Position numbers and translations under genes: made by a program. This document shows positions 11,073 to 24,841 of a stretch of DNA of 64,000 nucleotides, one piece after another (position 1 is the stretch's first letter; every line of letters begins with the position of its first letter). The notes beneath the pieces were generated by a model. The model ran no database searches. It was not told the DNA's origin and saw only the letters and a list, made by a program, of their open reading frames with translations. The DNA comes from a virus (Duplodnaviria > Heunggongvirae > Uroviricota > Caudoviricetes): the IMG/VR virus record IMGVR_UViG_3300045988_003641, positions 25,067 to 89,066 of that record. The stretch is one strand, 5' to 3'.

Positions 11073-19142
<8,070 letters not shown>

Positions 19143-19144
19143 TA

Positions 19145-20317
19145 ATGGCAGTAGGTGAAATTCAAATTAGTGCCTTGCCTCAAGCATCCTTACCAATTGA
19201 CCTTAGTGATATCTTCCATCTTAAGCAGGGTATTGAGGATAAGAGGTGTACTCTTGAGCAATTACTTGCTCCACACGCAAGCCTAAGAAATAACCCTCAT
19301 GGTGTTACTAAAACACAAATTGGTTTAGATAATGTTATTAATGCTCTTCAGTTAGTCGCTGCAAATAACTTATCAGATATTGTTAATGTAGCTGAGGCAA
19401 GAGCAAATCTACAGATTATGTCTTCAGAAGAGGTTAATAACCTTGTCCAGCAACATATCAAGGACAAGAGTAACCCACACAATACAACTAAGGCACAGGT
19501 TGGTTTAAGTAATGTTCAGAACTGGACAACATCTAATCTGTATAACGAAGATGCAGATAAGTATGCTACAGCAAGAGCATTAAATAACTTGTACAAGGCT
19601 GTTCAGGCTTCTTATCCAGTAGGTACTATCCATCTTTCTATGAACTCTGCAAACCCTTCCACATACTTAATTTGTGGAGGTACTTGGGAGTTAGTTTCAA
19701 AAGGCAGGGCATTGGTTGGCTATGACTCTGATACAAGACCAGCAGGTTCTATATTTGGCGCTTCAACTGTCACTTTGTCAGTTAATAACATACCTCAGCA
19801 CTCCCACTCTGTGTCTCTTAGCGGTGGTGGTCACACTCATAATGCAACTGTGTCAATTTCAGCTTTTGATTATGGGACTAAGACTACAAACTCTTTTGAC
19901 TATGGGACAAAAGCTACTAACACAACTGGTAACCATACACACAGTGTGTCAGGTAACACTAGCACCAATGGTACTCACAACCATGATGTGTATCCTAGAG
20001 CAAATGATGGCTCTGGTAATGCTGTGGCTGACTCTGATGGTGGTGGTCCAAGAAGGACATCAAGGACTTCTAGTGATGGTGCGCACTCACACAGCTTTAA
20101 CGTCACATCTGGTGCATCAGGTGACCACAGCCACACGGTTGGTATTGGTGCTCACAGTCATACAGTTGGTATTGGTTCACATACGCATAGTGGCACTGTA
20201 ACAGTTTCTTCTTCTGAACATACACATAGTGGCAATACAAATAGTGTTGGTGGAGGTCAGGCAGTTAATATTGAACAGCCATCCTTCGTACTGTATGTAT
20301 GGCAGAGAACAGCTTAA
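19145..20317 (+). CDS. tail fibre protein with His-rich C-terminal tip
   Basis: 390 aa; C-terminal repeats FDYGTK...HTHSVSG...HSHTVGIGAHSHTVGIGSHTHSG (HxH motifs); ends ...VWQRTA like the next fibre. Confidence 0.6.
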   Translation: MAVGEIQISALPQASLPIDLSDIFHLKQGIEDKRCTLEQLLAPHASLRNNPHGVTKTQIGLDNVINALQLVAANNLSDIVNVAEARANLQIMSSEEVNNLVQQHIKDKSNPHNTTKAQVGLSNVQNWTTSNLYNEDADKYATARALNNLYKAVQASYPVGTIHLSMNSANPSTYLICGGTWELVSKGRALVGYDSDTRPAGSIFGASTVTLSVNNIPQHSHSVSLSGGGHTHNATVSISAFDYGTKTTNSFDYGTKATNTTGNHTHSVSGNTSTNGTHNHDVYPRANDGSGNAVADSDGGGPRRTSRTSSDGAHSHSFNVTSGASGDHSHTVGIGAHSHTVGIGSHTHSGTVTVSSSEHTHSGNTNSVGGGQAVNIEQPSFVLYVWQRTA

Positions 20318-20326
20318 TTTCTTTAC

Positions 20327-20348
20327 AGGGGCTTTATAGCCCCTTTTA
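20327..20348 (+). terminator. rho-independent terminator
   Basis: AGGGGCT-TTAT-AGCCCCT then TTTT. Confidence 0.55.
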
Positions 20349-20363
20349 AGAGGAAAATTTATA

Positions 20364-22712
20364 ATGGCAGATTACAAATTGAGTGAGCTAAACTCAATCG
20401 ACACAATCCGTTCAGATGACCTTCTTCATGTCAGAGTTAAAAAGAGACCTAAAATGCTGGGTGATGAAGACCGTCGAATGACCTATCAAGATTTCTTAGC
20501 ATCTTTTAAGCTTGAAAGATTTGTTCAGATTGCTGGTAGCACTATGACGGGTGACTTAGGAATTGTTAAGCTACTTTACGGTGGCAAGGCTGTATTCGAC
20601 CCCACAGGCTCTTCTGAGATTACTGTTGGTGATATTTTAAAGACTTTTAAAATCAACGCAAACGACCTTAAACTAACTATTGCAGACGCTTCAAGGTCGG
20701 CAACTGTTTATCATACTTTGAATAAGCCAAGCCCTAATGAACTTGGGATGAGAACTAATGAAGAGAATGACGCAAGGTATGCAAGACTAGCCGTGAATAA
20801 TACCTTTAGAGGTACTCAAGCTATCCTCTCTGACAATGGAGCGCTCATTATTAAAAATATCACTCAAGGTGCTCCACTCTATCTTCGTGGTCAAGATGCA
20901 GATGGTACTAACAGATGGTATCTAGGTAATGATAATAGGGGTACAAATAATCTTGTATTGAAGAATGTAAAGTCTGACGTTTCAATTGCTATTTTAGAGA
21001 ATTTGGTGAAAGTCAACAGAACTCTTCAAATTGCTGGCCAAGTTCAGCCTTCAAGTTTTGCTAACTTAGATGCTAGGTATTTTACCCAGACAGCAGCTAA
21101 TCAGAGATTTGCGCAGTTAGCTGGTAATAACACTTTTACTGGTACTAACACTTTCTCTAATTTTGTTGCTAAGAAGAATGCTGAAGCCATCACTCTGCGA
21201 AATGTGGACACTGCTCCCTCTTTATATATCCGAGCAAGAAAGTCAGATGGGAATTATAAGTGGTATATTGGTAATGACGGTGATGAGAACATTTTAAAAA
21301 TCTATAACTATCTAACAGAAACACAAGTCTCACTAGGTAACACTATTGCCATGAGCAAAACAGTTCGAATTGATGGTCAAGTACAACCTTCTGATTGGAC
21401 TAACATTGATTCTAGATATATTCCGGCAGCCACTTTGAGTAATCTCCCTAAACTTAATGTTGCTAATACTTTCACAAATGTGCAGACTATTGTATCAGAT
21501 AATGAAGGTTTAGTATTAAGGAGCTTAACACAGGGACAGCCACAATATATCCGTGGTGTTGATACTGCGAATGTATCTAGGTGGTGGCTGGGCGTAGGAA
21601 CTGCTAATTCTAACGTGGTAACCTTGAGCAACAGCTTTTCAGGCACTCAAATTTCCCTAGAGCCAACATTGGTTAGTATGAATAAGAATCTGTATATTAA
21701 TGGGCAGGTTCAACCAAAAAATTGGTCTAACTTAGATGCTAGATACTTTGTTAAGACTCAGTTATTAAATCAATCTTTGATGACTGCATCTGTAGATAAT
21801 CTTGAAAACCCTTCAGCATTTAATCTTGGGTATTCAGGTTTTGTCAGAAACAACAATGTGACTAGTGGTCTGAAAGAGTTGGCAATTCATGTTGCTCACT
21901 CTAGTAAGACTGCTGCACACGCAAGGGGTATCTCTTTTGTATACGGTTCAAACGGTTTGGCAACATTCACCTATGCCTATGACAAAAATGGTGACTATGC
22001 CGGAGAGGCACAGATTTACACAACTGATTTTAAACCAACCCCTTCAGAGATTGGTGCATATACTAAAGCAGAAACTGACCAGAAATTTGCAACAGCAATT
22101 AGTGACTCTACAGACCTTAATAAAATCTATCCAGTAGGTATTGTAACTTGGTTTAACAGTGATGTTGACCCTAATACAGCACTACCTGGGTTAACTTGGA
22201 CGTATCTTAACAATGGTGTTGGTAGGACTATCAGGATTGCAGCAGCAGATGGTTCAGATGTTGCTACAACAGGTGGTTCAGACTCTGTGGTGTTATCTGT
22301 TGGTAACTTACCGTCACACACCCATAGTTTCTCTGCTACCACTTCATCTTTTGATTATGGTACGAAGAACACTAATAGTACTGGTGCTCACACCCACTCA
22401 GTTAGTGGTACTGCTGCATCTGCTGGGCAACACGCACACAGAATTTCACAGGGTGACAACGCTAACGTTCCATCAGGTAGAGTTGCATCTTCGAACTCTG
22501 CTCAGACCCATGTTGGTTGGACTGAAAATGATGGTGCTCACACCCACTCAGTTAGTGGTACTGCTGCATCTGCTGGTGGACATGCTCACTCTGTAGGTAT
22601 TGGTGCTCACAGCCACACAGTTAGTGGTAACACTGGTGGTACAGGCTCTGGTTCAGCATTTAGTGTTACTAACCAGTTCTACAAGTTAATGGCTTGGGTA
22701 AGAACTGCTTAA
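20364..22712 (+). CDS. long tail fibre protein
   Basis: 782 aa; three ~100 aa internal repeats; C-terminal HxH repeat module paralogous to 19145-20317; ends ...AWVRTA. Confidence 0.65.
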   Translation: MADYKLSELNSIDTIRSDDLLHVRVKKRPKMLGDEDRRMTYQDFLASFKLERFVQIAGSTMTGDLGIVKLLYGGKAVFDPTGSSEITVGDILKTFKINANDLKLTIADASRSATVYHTLNKPSPNELGMRTNEENDARYARLAVNNTFRGTQAILSDNGALIIKNITQGAPLYLRGQDADGTNRWYLGNDNRGTNNLVLKNVKSDVSIAILENLVKVNRTLQIAGQVQPSSFANLDARYFTQTAANQRFAQLAGNNTFTGTNTFSNFVAKKNAEAITLRNVDTAPSLYIRARKSDGNYKWYIGNDGDENILKIYNYLTETQVSLGNTIAMSKTVRIDGQVQPSDWTNIDSRYIPAATLSNLPKLNVANTFTNVQTIVSDNEGLVLRSLTQGQPQYIRGVDTANVSRWWLGVGTANSNVVTLSNSFSGTQISLEPTLVSMNKNLYINGQVQPKNWSNLDARYFVKTQLLNQSLMTASVDNLENPSAFNLGYSGFVRNNNVTSGLKELAIHVAHSSKTAAHARGISFVYGSNGLATFTYAYDKNGDYAGEAQIYTTDFKPTPSEIGAYTKAETDQKFATAISDSTDLNKIYPVGIVTWFNSDVDPNTALPGLTWTYLNNGVGRTIRIAAADGSDVATTGGSDSVVLSVGNLPSHTHSFSATTSSFDYGTKNTNSTGAHTHSVSGTAASAGQHAHRISQGDNANVPSGRVASSNSAQTHVGWTENDGAHTHSVSGTAASAGGHAHSVGIGAHSHTVSGNTGGTGSGSAFSVTNQFYKLMAWVRTA

Positions 22713-22791
22713 TCCCTTGTTAACTGATTGTTAAGATGGTGTTAATATTCTTTATGGGTATTCTCACCATCTTGGCTGATGAGGTGATTAA

Positions 22792-22986
22792 ATGCCTACA
22801 ATCCTAGCAATTCTTCTAAAAAATCTAGGTAGCTTCTTCTGGAAACTCATTTTATCCCTTCTAAGTGAATACATGATTGAGAAAGTGTTCTTTAAGCTTG
22901 CAAGATATCTTGCGAGTAAAACAGACACACCTATTGATGATGAGTTCGTAGATAACTTAGAAAAAGCTTTTAAGGGGGAGAAATAA
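22792..22986 (+). CDS. small hydrophobic protein
   Basis: 64 aa, one hydrophobic helix, charged C-terminus; end of late operon. Confidence 0.3.
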   Translation: MPTILAILLKNLGSFFWKLILSLLSEYMIEKVFFKLARYLASKTDTPIDDEFVDNLEKAFKGEK

Positions 22987-23358
22987 ATGAAGTGGCTAGA
23001 GGAAGCTTTTAAAAATAATATTGGTGCAATTGTAGTTGGTATTTTTAGTGTTATTGGGATGTATACCACCATGCAAGTTTCAAGTGGTAAACAAGAAGTG
23101 TCTGTCACAACAAAGTTACAGCAGCTAGATAATTATTCAAAAAGTAACTATTCAGCTATTCATGATTTACAGTCTGACATGAGATTGATTCAGCTAGGGA
23201 TGGAGAACCAGAAAGTTCAGTTAGAGAATGTTAAGGGCGAAAACGCAAAACTTACCAAAACTCTTGATAAATTCTCTGACAGTGTAAATAATCTGGCTCA
23301 ATCAGTATCAGCCCTCCAAGCTATTACTGAGAAGAACACAAAGAATACTGAAAAATAA
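22987..23358 (+). CDS. membrane-anchored coiled-coil protein
   Basis: 123 aa; N-terminal hydrophobic segment IGAIVVGIFSVIGMY then helical region. Confidence 0.3.
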   Translation: MKWLEEAFKNNIGAIVVGIFSVIGMYTTMQVSSGKQEVSVTTKLQQLDNYSKSNYSAIHDLQSDMRLIQLGMENQKVQLENVKGENAKLTKTLDKFSDSVNNLAQSVSALQAITEKNTKNTEK

Positions 23359-23365
23359 AATTTAA

Positions 23366-23391
23366 GGCTCCCGTAAAAAGGAGCCTTTTTT
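23366..23391. terminator. bidirectional terminator between convergent late (+) and early (-) blocks
   Basis: GGCTCC-CGTAAAAA-GGAGCC with T-runs on both strands. Confidence 0.65.
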
Positions 23392-23394
23392 GTT

Positions 23395-24294
23395 TTACTT
23401 ACCTACTGACAGAGGTGCTTCAATCTTCCCTGCATGTTGGTAGTTGTTAATGCCACCAATAAAATCACTTGCAGTGAGATGTTTTAGGTCACTTAAAGTG
23501 TTAAGTGGGATACCAATCTCAAAAGTTGGTGCATGGAACTCTTCATTGTTCATCAGTTCATAAACCTGCTTCATATGGTTCTGATAAATCTGAGTATCTC
23601 CAAAGACACCTATCAAATATCGTGGAGTGTATCCAGTCATCTTACAAAGGACTTCCAGAATAAAACCATAAGATGCAATGTTAAACGGAAGCCCTAAAAA
23701 GGTGTCTACAGAACGCTGATACCATTGTAAGTCAACTTCACCCTCGTTGGTGATATAAATCTGAAACAGAACATGACAAGGTGCTAAAGCCATTGAGTTT
23801 GCTGCAATATCTGCTGCATTCCAAGCGTTAACAAGCATGTAACGGTCTGTGATATCACCCTTCATCTTCGCTACTAAGGTCTCTAACTGGTCTACAACAC
23901 AACCATCATGACCCTCAAAGTTTCTCCACTGAACCCCGTAGATTCTACCACCTGCATCCTCTAACCAGTCTTGTTCAGAGGAATAATTAGAGCTTAACCA
24001 GCGTTTAAAATCATCTGACCAGATAGTCCAGCGTTCCCCATCATTTTCACCCCAAGTACGGTAACGAAGTTCACCAAGTTTATTCTCACCATTCAGGAAC
24101 CATAAAGCTTCCCCAATAACTTGCCGTGTAAACACCTGTTTAGATGTTAAGAGTGGGAAACCAGTTCGCATATCAAAACGAAACTGTGGTGGAGCAAATG
24201 CAGAGATAACCTCTCCAGTTCGTGTAGTACGCAGTTCACCAACGGATAAAACATGGTTCAGGATATTTTTGTAACTCAAATCAGCTTGTGACAT
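23395..24294 (-). CDS. thyA: thymidylate synthase
   Basis: 299 aa; active-site signature ALAPCHVLFQ. Confidence 0.85.
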   Translation of the reverse strand: MSQADLSYKNILNHVLSVGELRTTRTGEVISAFAPPQFRFDMRTGFPLLTSKQVFTRQVIGEALWFLNGENKLGELRYRTWGENDGERWTIWSDDFKRWLSSNYSSEQDWLEDAGGRIYGVQWRNFEGHDGCVVDQLETLVAKMKGDITDRYMLVNAWNAADIAANSMALAPCHVLFQIYITNEGEVDLQWYQRSVDTFLGLPFNIASYGFILEVLCKMTGYTPRYLIGVFGDTQIYQNHMKQVYELMNNEEFHAPTFEIGIPLNTLSDLKHLTASDFIGGINNYQHAGKIEAPLSVGK

Positions 24295-24295
24295 A

Positions 24296-24841
24296 TCAAA
24301 AGTGTCCTTTTACTTGTGGAACATAAATTTCAAAGGTTGCTTTACCATCATCCGATGGCCTTGACTGTACCTTTGCAAATACACGGCTATCATACAGCTT
24401 CTCAAAGAAGTTTTCAAAAGGTAAATGCACAGTGGCCTCTTCAGTAACTTTATGGAAGACTGTATGGAACACCACACCAGCATACGGTAAAGCATTGACA
24501 AGGACACCTGCACCACCAATTACAAAGACATCTTCATCAATAGAGCTATCAAGATACTTCAAAAATGCTCCAAATGACTCTTTACTGGCTTTAGCATACA
24601 TTACATCATCTTTGCCAAAGTCTATGCCTAAGTATGGTACAGAATTTGTTAAGATTAGGTTTGCACGTTCTGGTAGAGGTTTACTACCCAGAGTCTTAAA
24701 AGTCTCATTACCCATCACTACTAAGTTATTTTTAGTGAGTCTCTTAAACTCTTGCATGTCCTGTTTATGTCGAGGCCACGGCATACCAGTTGGAGTACCA
24801 AACTCACCATTTTCACCACTTGCAAAGATTAATTTAATCAT
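24296..24841 (-). CDS. frd: dihydrofolate reductase
   Basis: 181 aa; DHFR-like N-terminus (IFA..ENGEFG..GMPW) and VIGGAGV motif; adjacent to thyA. Confidence 0.75.
   Translation of the reverse strand: MIKLIFASGENGEFGTPTGMPWPRHKQDMQEFKRLTKNNLVVMGNETFKTLGSKPLPERANLILTNSVPYLGIDFGKDDVMYAKASKESFGAFLKYLDSSIDEDVFVIGGAGVLVNALPYAGVVFHTVFHKVTEEATVHLPFENFFEKLYDSRVFAKVQSRPSDDGKATFEIYVPQVKGHF

Follow-up and report, generated by a model that had tools for sequence, protein, structure and literature searches.

Both tail fibres of a Felix O1-like phage are predicted to end in a T4 gp37-type, histidine-lined receptor-binding tip

DNA comparison with phage records places the stretch analysed here (the window, 64,000 nucleotides long) in Felixounavirus, the genus of Felix O1-like coliphages, which are myophages. 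The window matches 234 phage records, nearly all of them Felixounavirus, and is 92.6% identical in DNA to ULIM9 (100% coverage) and 95.9% identical to ULIM3; 28 syntenic loci are found among IMG/VR relatives. The genes of interest follow the order seen in phage Bas63: a baseplate J-like protein (489 residues), a wedge protein (287 residues), a platform protein, a short tail fibre and a long tail fibre, of which the last three lie on the forward strand. The platform protein (18840–19142, 100 residues, phrog_4141), which is the mount of the long fibre, matches PDB entry 9ndy_S, the ‘LTF platform protein (gp025)’ of Bas63, over its full length (E = 3.1e-64). DNA and gene order are near-identical within Felix O1-like genomes, which identifies the two genes that follow as the Felixounavirus fibre pair. 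Other open reading frames (ORFs) inside the fibre genes, for example at 19716–20201 and 22213–22596 on the forward strand and at 21377–21646 and 22127–22342 on the reverse strand, were treated as by-products of the repetitive codon composition. A promoter and terminator scan of positions 18700–23500 found nothing within the fibre genes that exceeds shuffle expectation. One bidirectional terminator-like hairpin lies downstream of the operon, at 23364–23387.

The short tail fibre gene (19145–20317) is an intact ORF that encodes a 390-residue protein of the Bas63 gp26/VpaE1 gp74 type. It belongs to the tail fibre family phrog_2097 (E = 4.5e-135), matches Pfam Gp10_C over residues 154–269 (64 bits, cut-off 27) and matches the receptor-binding tip of T4 gp37 (PDB id: 2XGF). 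Its C-terminal part consists of five segments. A collar (residues 157–218, 19613–19798; boundaries approximate, from alignment), which begins YPVGTIHL and aligns with T4 gp10 residues 440–515 and with the gp37 collar, is followed by an ascending needle strand (residues 219–280, 19799–19984), which carries HxH motifs at residues 219, 230, 264 and 278 and two FDYGTK units at residues 241 and 251. The head (residues 281–313, 19985–20083, DVYPRANDGSGNAVADSDGGGPRRTSRTSSDGA) is enclosed by two HxH blocks, in the position of the T4 gp37 head, and is hypervariable between relatives; its type occurs in only 26 phage records, each an E. coli Felixounavirus. The descending needle strand (residues 314–361, 20084–20227) is built of GIGxHxHTV nonamer repeats and carries HxH motifs at residues 314, 328, 337, 346 and 359, so that the fibre, which contains the run HSHTVGIGAHSHTVGIGSHTHSG, has nine in all. 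The C-terminal return segment (20228–20314) ends FVLYVWQRTA and is kept in 28 of 28 relatives; it matches in position the C-terminal strand of T4 gp37 (...NYIVRLA) and probably forms the last strand of the collar. The AlphaFold2 model of the monomer is of moderate confidence (mean pLDDT 69.7, pTM 0.33; collar pLDDT 78–88) and displays long β segments (82–131 and 177–224) with a low-confidence loop (145–163) between them. Its best fold matches are the collar domains of T4 gp10 and gp11, and 2XGF is among the matches listed.

The long tail fibre gene (20364–22712) is likewise an intact ORF, which encodes a 782-residue protein of the Bas63 gp27/VpaE1 gp75 type. The protein matches phrog_4277 over its full length (1232 bits), the Pfam families gp37_trimer (three stretches, E = 1.8e-54) and Phage_fiber (PF03335, three stretches), and 2XGF. 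Its collar (residues 589–651, 22128–22316) begins YPVGIVTWF, aligns with that of the short fibre and is conserved in relatives; the Gp10_C match here (residues 586–696) scores 22.1 bits, which is under the Pfam cut-off of 27. Six HxH motifs are divided equally between the ascending strand (residues 652–692, 22317–22439; HxH at 652, 676 and 690), which has one FDYGTK unit, and the descending strand (residues 726–751, 22539–22616; HxH at 726, 740 and 749). The head between them (residues 693–725, 22440–22538, RISQGDNANVPSGRVASSNSAQTHVGWTENDGA) is the hypervariable block in an alignment of 24 distinct relative sequences: its 90-nt bin has 37–47% DNA identity to relatives, and the flanks have 90–100%. 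This head type is found in 17 of 50,697 phage records and, as more distant matches, in ST32-like phages of 52–53 kb and some T4-like phages. The return segment (22617–22709) ends YKLMAWVRTA and is nearly unchanged across relatives.

An earlier note on this DNA had described two fibres with HxH-rich tips, FDYGTK units and W(Q/V)RTA ends, and the intact ORFs, the nine and six HxH motifs and the WQRTA and WVRTA termini bear this out. Some of its details need adjustment. FDYGTK occurs in both fibres, but the second unit of the short fibre reads FDYGTKATN and departs from the proposed FDYGTK(N/T)TN; the GIG run quoted for both fibres is present in the short one, but the long fibre, which also contains FDYGTKNTNSTGAHTHSVSG, has HAHSVGIGAHSHTVSG instead; and the span 19790–22712 also takes in the long fibre's entire shaft, which lies outside the tip.

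The likeness to metal-coordinating T4-type tips, also proposed earlier, is borne out by a phmmer comparison of both fibres with the Protein Data Bank, in which both match the T4 gp37 tip (2XGF; gp37 residues ~800–1026). Residues 146–362 of the short fibre align with 2XGF chain positions 18–228 (E = 1.5e-28), and residues 647–761 of the long fibre with chain positions 94–218 (E = 2e-14). T4 gp37 has HxH motifs at 883, 915 and 929 and at 966, 980, 989 and 998. All seven are matched in the short fibre, the first three by ascending and the last four by descending motifs, and two more (HTH230 and HTH359) are extra to T4. In the long fibre the first six of the seven are matched, and HGH998 is without counterpart. 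HxH motifs thus occupy the T4 ligand positions on the outgoing and returning strands of both fibres, and a collar domain of the gp10/gp11/gp12 fold is present at the base of the tip. From the sequence comparison, both fibres are predicted to end in a His-lined tip of the T4 gp37 type. As such tips are already known from published work on both Felix O1-type fibres, this is an ordinary feature of the genus.

The motifs far exceed what composition would give. Residue shuffles of the short fibre yield 1.4 HxH on average against nine observed, those of the long fibre 0.4 against six, and the observed number was reached in none of 5000 shuffles in either case. Within the last 180 residues, HxH motifs account for 18 of 18 histidines in the short fibre and for 12 of 13 in the long fibre. 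These figures bear on the reading that takes the His-rich repeats for a low-complexity, variable linker that neither binds metal nor has a structural role. The region is indeed biased towards G, S, T and H, and the number of HxH motifs differs across relatives (7 or 9 in short fibres; 4, 6 or 7 in long ones). However, each histidine of the short fibre tip falls in an HxH motif, the motifs align with the Fe-coordinating ones of T4 gp37, and across 70 homologues, with identity to the query down to 35%, conservation of the HxH histidines and of the glycines beside them is 90% or higher; the variable part is the head. We rejected the linker, which the earlier note had named as the possible undoing of its proposal, on the grounds of this conservation and of the placement of histidines relative to shuffles, and regard it as extremely improbable.

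It is highly probable that the two genes each encode a homotrimeric fibre with a T4 gp37-type receptor-binding tip. In such a fibre, the chain would make the collar, then run outward as the ascending strand with its FDYGTK and GxHxHxVSG units, turn in a small head loop of ~32 residues and double back along a descending strand built from G(I/A)GxHxHTV repeats, and the conserved final strand (..VWQRTA or ..AWVRTA) would return to the collar. The trimer's six strands would build a thin needle, in which the three copies of an HxH motif at any one level would face inward and offer six imidazoles to a single octahedral metal ion, Fe2+ if T4, the only source for both metal binding and metal identity, is a guide. 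The HxH counts then predict nine ions per trimer for the short fibre and six for the long one, with the two short-fibre sites extra to T4 lying at the collar end, and the ions would stiffen the needle as rivets do. Specificity would reside in the head and the upper needle, and both heads are likely to be the receptor-contacting loops. Because the two heads of this phage differ, its fibres probably recognise different structures; by analogy with other members of the genus, the LPS core is the most likely target of both.

Comparison with relatives, which had been suggested as a check, shows that the collar, the needle base and the C-terminus are conserved and that the upper needle and head are not, and it is evident that the latter form a swappable, hypervariable cassette. 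The first 90–180 nt of both fibre genes have 93–99% DNA identity to E. coli and Salmonella relatives, and the head bins 30–60%. In both fibres, then, the N-terminal, baseplate-binding part is conserved and the tip at the C-terminus varies. The head cassette would be replaced through recombination in the conserved needle flanks. In the Salmonella phage UAB_Phi87 (L018), one cassette is carried by both fibres (~200 nt at 91% DNA identity), and two other relatives (L014 and L015) also have a cassette common to both fibres, at 81% and 79.5% DNA identity over ~200 nt. These shared cassettes demonstrate that exchange between fibres does occur in the genus.

The DNA of the long fibre tip carries a repeat of its own, a 45-nt exact direct repeat that had been reported earlier near these positions. 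Copy A (22382–22426) encodes GAHTHSVSGTAASAG on the ascending strand, and copy B (22532–22576), 150 nt downstream, encodes the identical 15 residues on the descending strand. Fifty shuffles of the region gave no repeat longer than 15 nt. Since two independent metagenome contigs (L001 and L002) also contain the exact repeat, it is no assembly artefact. The two copies match at 43 of 45 nt in one further relative (L005), at 40 of 45 in another (L006) and at 37 of 45 or fewer in the others, whether their heads are the same or different. We read the repeat as the DNA trace of the internal symmetry of the needle, in which the same 15 residues are used on the way up and on the way down; the identity of the copies is possibly kept by intragenic conversion.

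A different reading of this repeat, and one of the origin of the two tips, have to be weighed against the above. The copies, in frame and 150 nt apart, lie exactly on either side of the head, and the cassette that varies between phages sits amid conserved needle sequences, as would be expected of a functional recombination site that serves, for example, programmed deletion, inversion or replacement of the bracketed head. Copies are also more similar within a phage than between phages (32.3 versus 29.9 of 45 nt; 4 of 20,000 permutations), an excess confounded by the relatedness of the phages. Yet exact identity is limited to the window and the contigs L001 and L002 and decays in relatives, and a crossover between the copies would remove the head together with one HxH pair and leave a chain unable to turn back, which makes such a site very unlikely. 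Much the same low probability attaches to a recent duplication or domain exchange involving this phage's two fibre genes as the reason for their shared tips, although both tips have one architecture, with FDYGTK, GxHTHSVSG, VGIGAHSHTV and the RTA end in common, and the genus offers the precedents of UAB_Phi87, L014 and L015. The two tips are only 37% identical (37.4%, 95 bits) over 187 residues by BLASTP, the closest stretches of DNA that they share are 39 nt long (85%) and 26 nt long (88%), and the sequences of their heads are unrelated. T4 gp37 gives the short fibre tip a slightly higher BLASTP score (38.8% over 232 residues, 113 bits) than the long fibre tip of its own phage does. This divergence and the lack of any long DNA identity identify the two tips as old paralogues, and the recent event was rejected for this phage; of the exchange or duplication suggested earlier, what stands is the exchange of cassettes in relatives.

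A broader process can be put forward tentatively, as a possibility that we hold to be rather doubtful. Two-fibre Felix O1-like phages may shuttle the cassette of upper needle and head between one of their fibre genes and the other, and between phage groups, with crossovers in the conserved HxH repeats, and may in this way switch between ‘two different receptors’, the state of the window, and one head shared by both fibres, that of UAB_Phi87. Intragenic conversion that acts on the ascending and descending needle repeats, of which the perfect 45-nt repeat here would be a sign, may belong to this process too. UAB_Phi87 is a clear case in its favour, and two weaker cases and the modest excess of within-phage repeat similarity point in the same direction. 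Such a process was not met as a statement in the literature cited here, in which no dedicated search for it was made.

[quoted passage not shown] 2010). Like 2XGF, the tips described here have a collar, an HxH needle, a head and a return strand; the ascending strand bears FDYGTK units and the descending one GIGAHxHTV repeats. Unlike T4 gp37, which has seven HxH motifs, the short fibre has nine and the long fibre six, and their head loops are shorter, with no sequence relationship to that of T4. The tip is borne directly on a one-protein fibre and not on a fibre of four proteins (gp34–gp37), and, in place of the OmpC and LPS of T4, the literature makes the LPS core the likely receptor by analogy. 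In T4, gene 38 directly follows gene 37, but no gp38-like chaperone gene was found among the two ORFs downstream of the fibres (22792–22986 and 22987–23358) when these were checked against PHROGs and Pfam. They match only PHROGs of unknown function and no Pfam family above cut-off, and were set aside as fibre chaperones. The folding route may therefore differ from that of T4. The C-terminal ‘collar’ domains of T4 gp10, gp11 and gp12 (Gp10_C, PF21939; Collar, PF07484) are without a long multi-HxH needle. Gp12 binds a single Zn via one HxH.

Within the genus, a collar, an HxH needle and a head were described on both fibres of Bas63 (JohannRWettstein) from cryo-EM density and models in 2025 (PMC12609058); PDB entry 9ndy covers its baseplate. 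Bas63 shares with the window the genus, the gene order, a near-identical platform protein, gp37-like tips on both fibres (gp26 and gp27) and a long fibre with six HxH motifs and the shorter of the two needles. Its short fibre has seven reported HxH motifs (PMC12609058) against nine here, and both types exist in the genus; beside its long-fibre head an extra histidine (HHxH) is reported (PMC12609058), where the phage described here has QHAH. Both fibre C-termini of VpaE1 were found in 2015 to be homologous to the T4 gp37 adhesin, and the phage depends on the LPS core (PMC4690856). Its gp74 and gp75 are orthologous to the fibres described here. The two short fibre tips are of one type, and their head segments are 87% identical, but the long fibre of VpaE1 has a T4-like head (tip 58% identical to gp37) in place of the different, rarer head in the window.

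With the tips on both Felix O1-type fibres published from sequence in 2015 and from cryo-EM in 2025, and the fibres of this phage 92–96% identical in DNA to sequenced isolates, the locus has little discovery value. Its practical use lies in host-range work, for which ~100 nt per gene (19985–20083 and 22440–22538) are marked as swappable specificity determinants. The metal stoichiometries predicted by analogy, nine and six per trimer, are checkable figures. The phage pairs two heads of unlike frequency: the short-fibre one is a common E. coli type, the long-fibre one is rare.

Both tail fibers encoded in the window, the short fiber (19145–20317, plus strand, 390 aa) and the adjoining long fiber (20364–22712, plus strand, 782 aa), carry C-terminal parts that, on alignment, are homologues of the solved tip of the T4 long tail fiber protein gp37 (PDB 2XGF; short fiber, E=1.5e-28, aa 146–362; long fiber, E=2e-14, aa 647–761). 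The short fiber contains nine HxH (His-any-His) motifs, at aa 219, 230, 264, 278, 314, 328, 337, 346 and 359, together with two FDYGTK units, the run HSHTVGIGAHSHTVGIGSHTHSG and a VWQRTA C-terminus. The long fiber has six (aa 652, 676, 690, 726, 740 and 749), one FDYGTK unit and the C-terminus AWVRTA. The HxH, FDYGTK and RTA-end features listed for both fibers in the earlier note are thus all present. Neither HxH count was reached in any of 5000 residue shuffles, where the mean was 1.4 for the short fiber and 0.4 for the long one. All 18 histidines of the short fiber tip lie within HxH motifs, and in an alignment of 70 homologues with identity to the query down to 35%, the HxH histidines and the adjacent glycines are at least 90% conserved.

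When T4 gp37, taken from the T4 genome record, is aligned with both fibers, its seven HxH motifs (883, 915 and 929 before the head; 966, 980, 989 and 998 after it) all find a counterpart in the short fiber, which has two more at the collar end of the needle, HTH230 on the ascending strand and HTH359 on the descending one. The long fiber matches only the first six and has one FDYGTK unit fewer, which fits a shorter needle. The earlier likening of these tips to those of T4-type fibers is therefore borne out by the 2XGF homology and the matched motif positions. Pfam finds a collar domain of the gp10 type (short fiber, 64 bits; long fiber, 22 bits, below the cut-off), PF03335 ‘Phage tail fibre repeat’, with a 14-residue unit, and three gp37_trimer repeats in the shaft of the long fiber. 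Directly before the collar, long fiber residues 481–579 (21804–22100) resemble phage Mu tail fiber protein S (PDB 8ju3, E=4e-4), and the long fiber thus mixes shaft repeats and a tip of the gp37 kind with a domain resembling Mu S.

The 2XGF alignment and a published description (PMC12609058) suggest how such tips would work. Each fiber is probably a trimer, by homology with gp37, in which the chain would exit the collar, run outward as one of the needle's six strands, turn within a small head and head back, the final strand (..WQRTA or ..WVRTA) rejoining the collar. Every level of the needle would hold one metal ion (iron in T4), bound by six imidazoles from the three inward-facing copies of one HxH, giving a predicted load of nine ions in the short fiber and six in the long fiber. 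The ions would act as internal rivets, and specificity would be carried by the head. Trimer, metal and receptor are what we infer here; LPS structures are reported as used by members of the genus (PMC4690856; bioRxiv 10.64898/2026.04.02.716166).

The earlier note proposed domain exchange or duplication behind the shared tips. A recent copy between the two fibers of this phage is rejected, as the tips are 37% identical over 187 aa and no similar stretch of DNA between them is longer than 39 nt (at 85%). In BLASTP the short fiber tip scores slightly higher against T4 gp37 (113 bits) than against its long fiber partner (95 bits). On this evidence the common architecture is old. Exchange among relatives is real at the level of the cassette formed by upper needle and head: across 28 related loci the collar, needle base and C-terminal strand are kept, with at least eight unrelated cassette types in the long fiber and about six in the short fiber. 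In Salmonella phage UAB_Phi87 (locus L018:5001–8600), one cassette is common to both fibers (91% over 200 nt) and the head protein sequence is identical between them; weaker likeness is seen in loci L014 (81%) and L015 (79.5%). These three cases suggest cassette exchange between both fiber genes of one phage, although such likeness is absent in the phage studied here. In loci L011 (6200–7900) and L017 (6200–7600), the ORF after the short fiber is only 541 or 453 aa long, with neither HxH tip nor RTA end; the long fiber there may be split, frameshifted or otherwise built.

Compared with relatives in 90-nt bins, the long fiber gene alternates between 98–100% and 30–50% identity, and the swings are independent between relatives and between shaft repeats, pre-collar domain and head. 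As judged from sequence, the gene is a patchwork. Its head type (aa 671–724; 22374–22535) is rare, found in 17 of 50,697 phage records, nine of them Felixounaviruses; it recurs at ~74% in the 52–53 kb phages ST32, EcoM1 and TH53 and at ~60% in four Tequatrovirus records. By these matches, the head type crosses phage groups. The long fiber of VpaE1 has a T4-like head, its tip being 58% identical to gp37. The short fiber head occurs in 26 records, every one an E. coli Felixounavirus.

The exact 45-nt repeat reported earlier in the long fiber gene is present at 22382–22426 and 22532–22576, compared to at most 15 nt in shuffled sequence. It encodes GAHTHSVSGTAASAG twice, on the ascending and the descending strand flanking the head. 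The exact repeat is found only here and in two near-identical contigs; the copies match at 43/45 nt in relative L005, 40/45 in L006 and 22–37/45 in other head types. Because recombining the two copies would delete the head, after which the chain could no longer turn back, the repeat is read as a trace of the internal symmetry of the needle rather than as a functional site. Copies are slightly more similar within than between phages (32.3 vs 29.9 of 45 nt; reached in 4 of 20,000 permutations), a test confounded by phage relatedness. Identical residues use the same codon at a rate of 0.72 within and 0.61 between phages, and synonymous Ser-Val variants (TCAGTT or TCTGTA) appear in both copies within one phage (here and at the same positions in L005–L028). 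Given that confounding, these data only hint at intragenic gene conversion.

Upstream of both fiber genes lie a baseplate J-like protein (16511–17980), a 287-aa wedge protein (17977–18840) and a 100-aa long-fiber platform protein (18840–19142), which is that of Bas63 (PDB 9ndy_S, E=3.1e-64). A DNA search with the two fiber genes matches 234 phage records, nearly all from Felix O1-like E. coli and Salmonella phages, with Escherichia phages ULIM9 (92.6% identity, 100% coverage) and ULIM3 (95.9%) on top; both records label the two genes tail fibers. On these matches and the shared platform protein, the phage is assigned to Felixounavirus, and its two genes to the short and long tail fibers, equivalents of Bas63 gp26/gp27 and VpaE1 gp74/gp75. 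The fiber N-termini (19145–19270 and 20364–20520) show faint likeness only (E=0.26); in the Bas63 study, the baseplate-binding domains of both fibers are structurally alike without sequence similarity.

The gp37-type tips on both fibers are real and already known, from VpaE1 and Bas63, and the earlier note recognized them correctly. Both Felix O1-type C-termini were described in 2015 as homologous to the gp37 adhesin (VpaE1 gp74, aa 146–362; gp75, aa 584–780; PMC4690856), and in 2025 collar, HxH needle and head were described on both Bas63 fibers, with di-histidine motifs counted (PMC12609058); a related account has appeared for Sf14 (PMC11821841). The tip family is widespread (623 phage records; 517 protein clusters at E≤1e-5), with 5 to 11 HxH per protein among 120 listed homologues. 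The departures from the Bas63 model are of degree only: nine short fiber motifs versus seven, nine being common in the genus, and a rarer long fiber head.

After the long fiber come two plus-strand ORFs of 64 aa (22792–22986) and 123 aa (22987–23358), which match only PHROGs 402 and 4038, both of unknown function, and, by the T4 genome record, occupy the place of T4 genes 38 (fiber chaperone) and t (holin). The 123-aa product has a hydrophobic N-terminus and weak Pfam matches below the cut-off, mainly to coiled-coil families. A bidirectional terminator-like hairpin at 23364–23387 (AAGGCTCC...GGAGCCTT, T runs flanking both sides) marks the boundary between the plus-strand structural genes and the subsequent minus-strand genes, where, from translations judged by eye, ORFs of 299 and 181 aa (23395–24841) resemble thymidylate synthase and dihydrofolate reductase.
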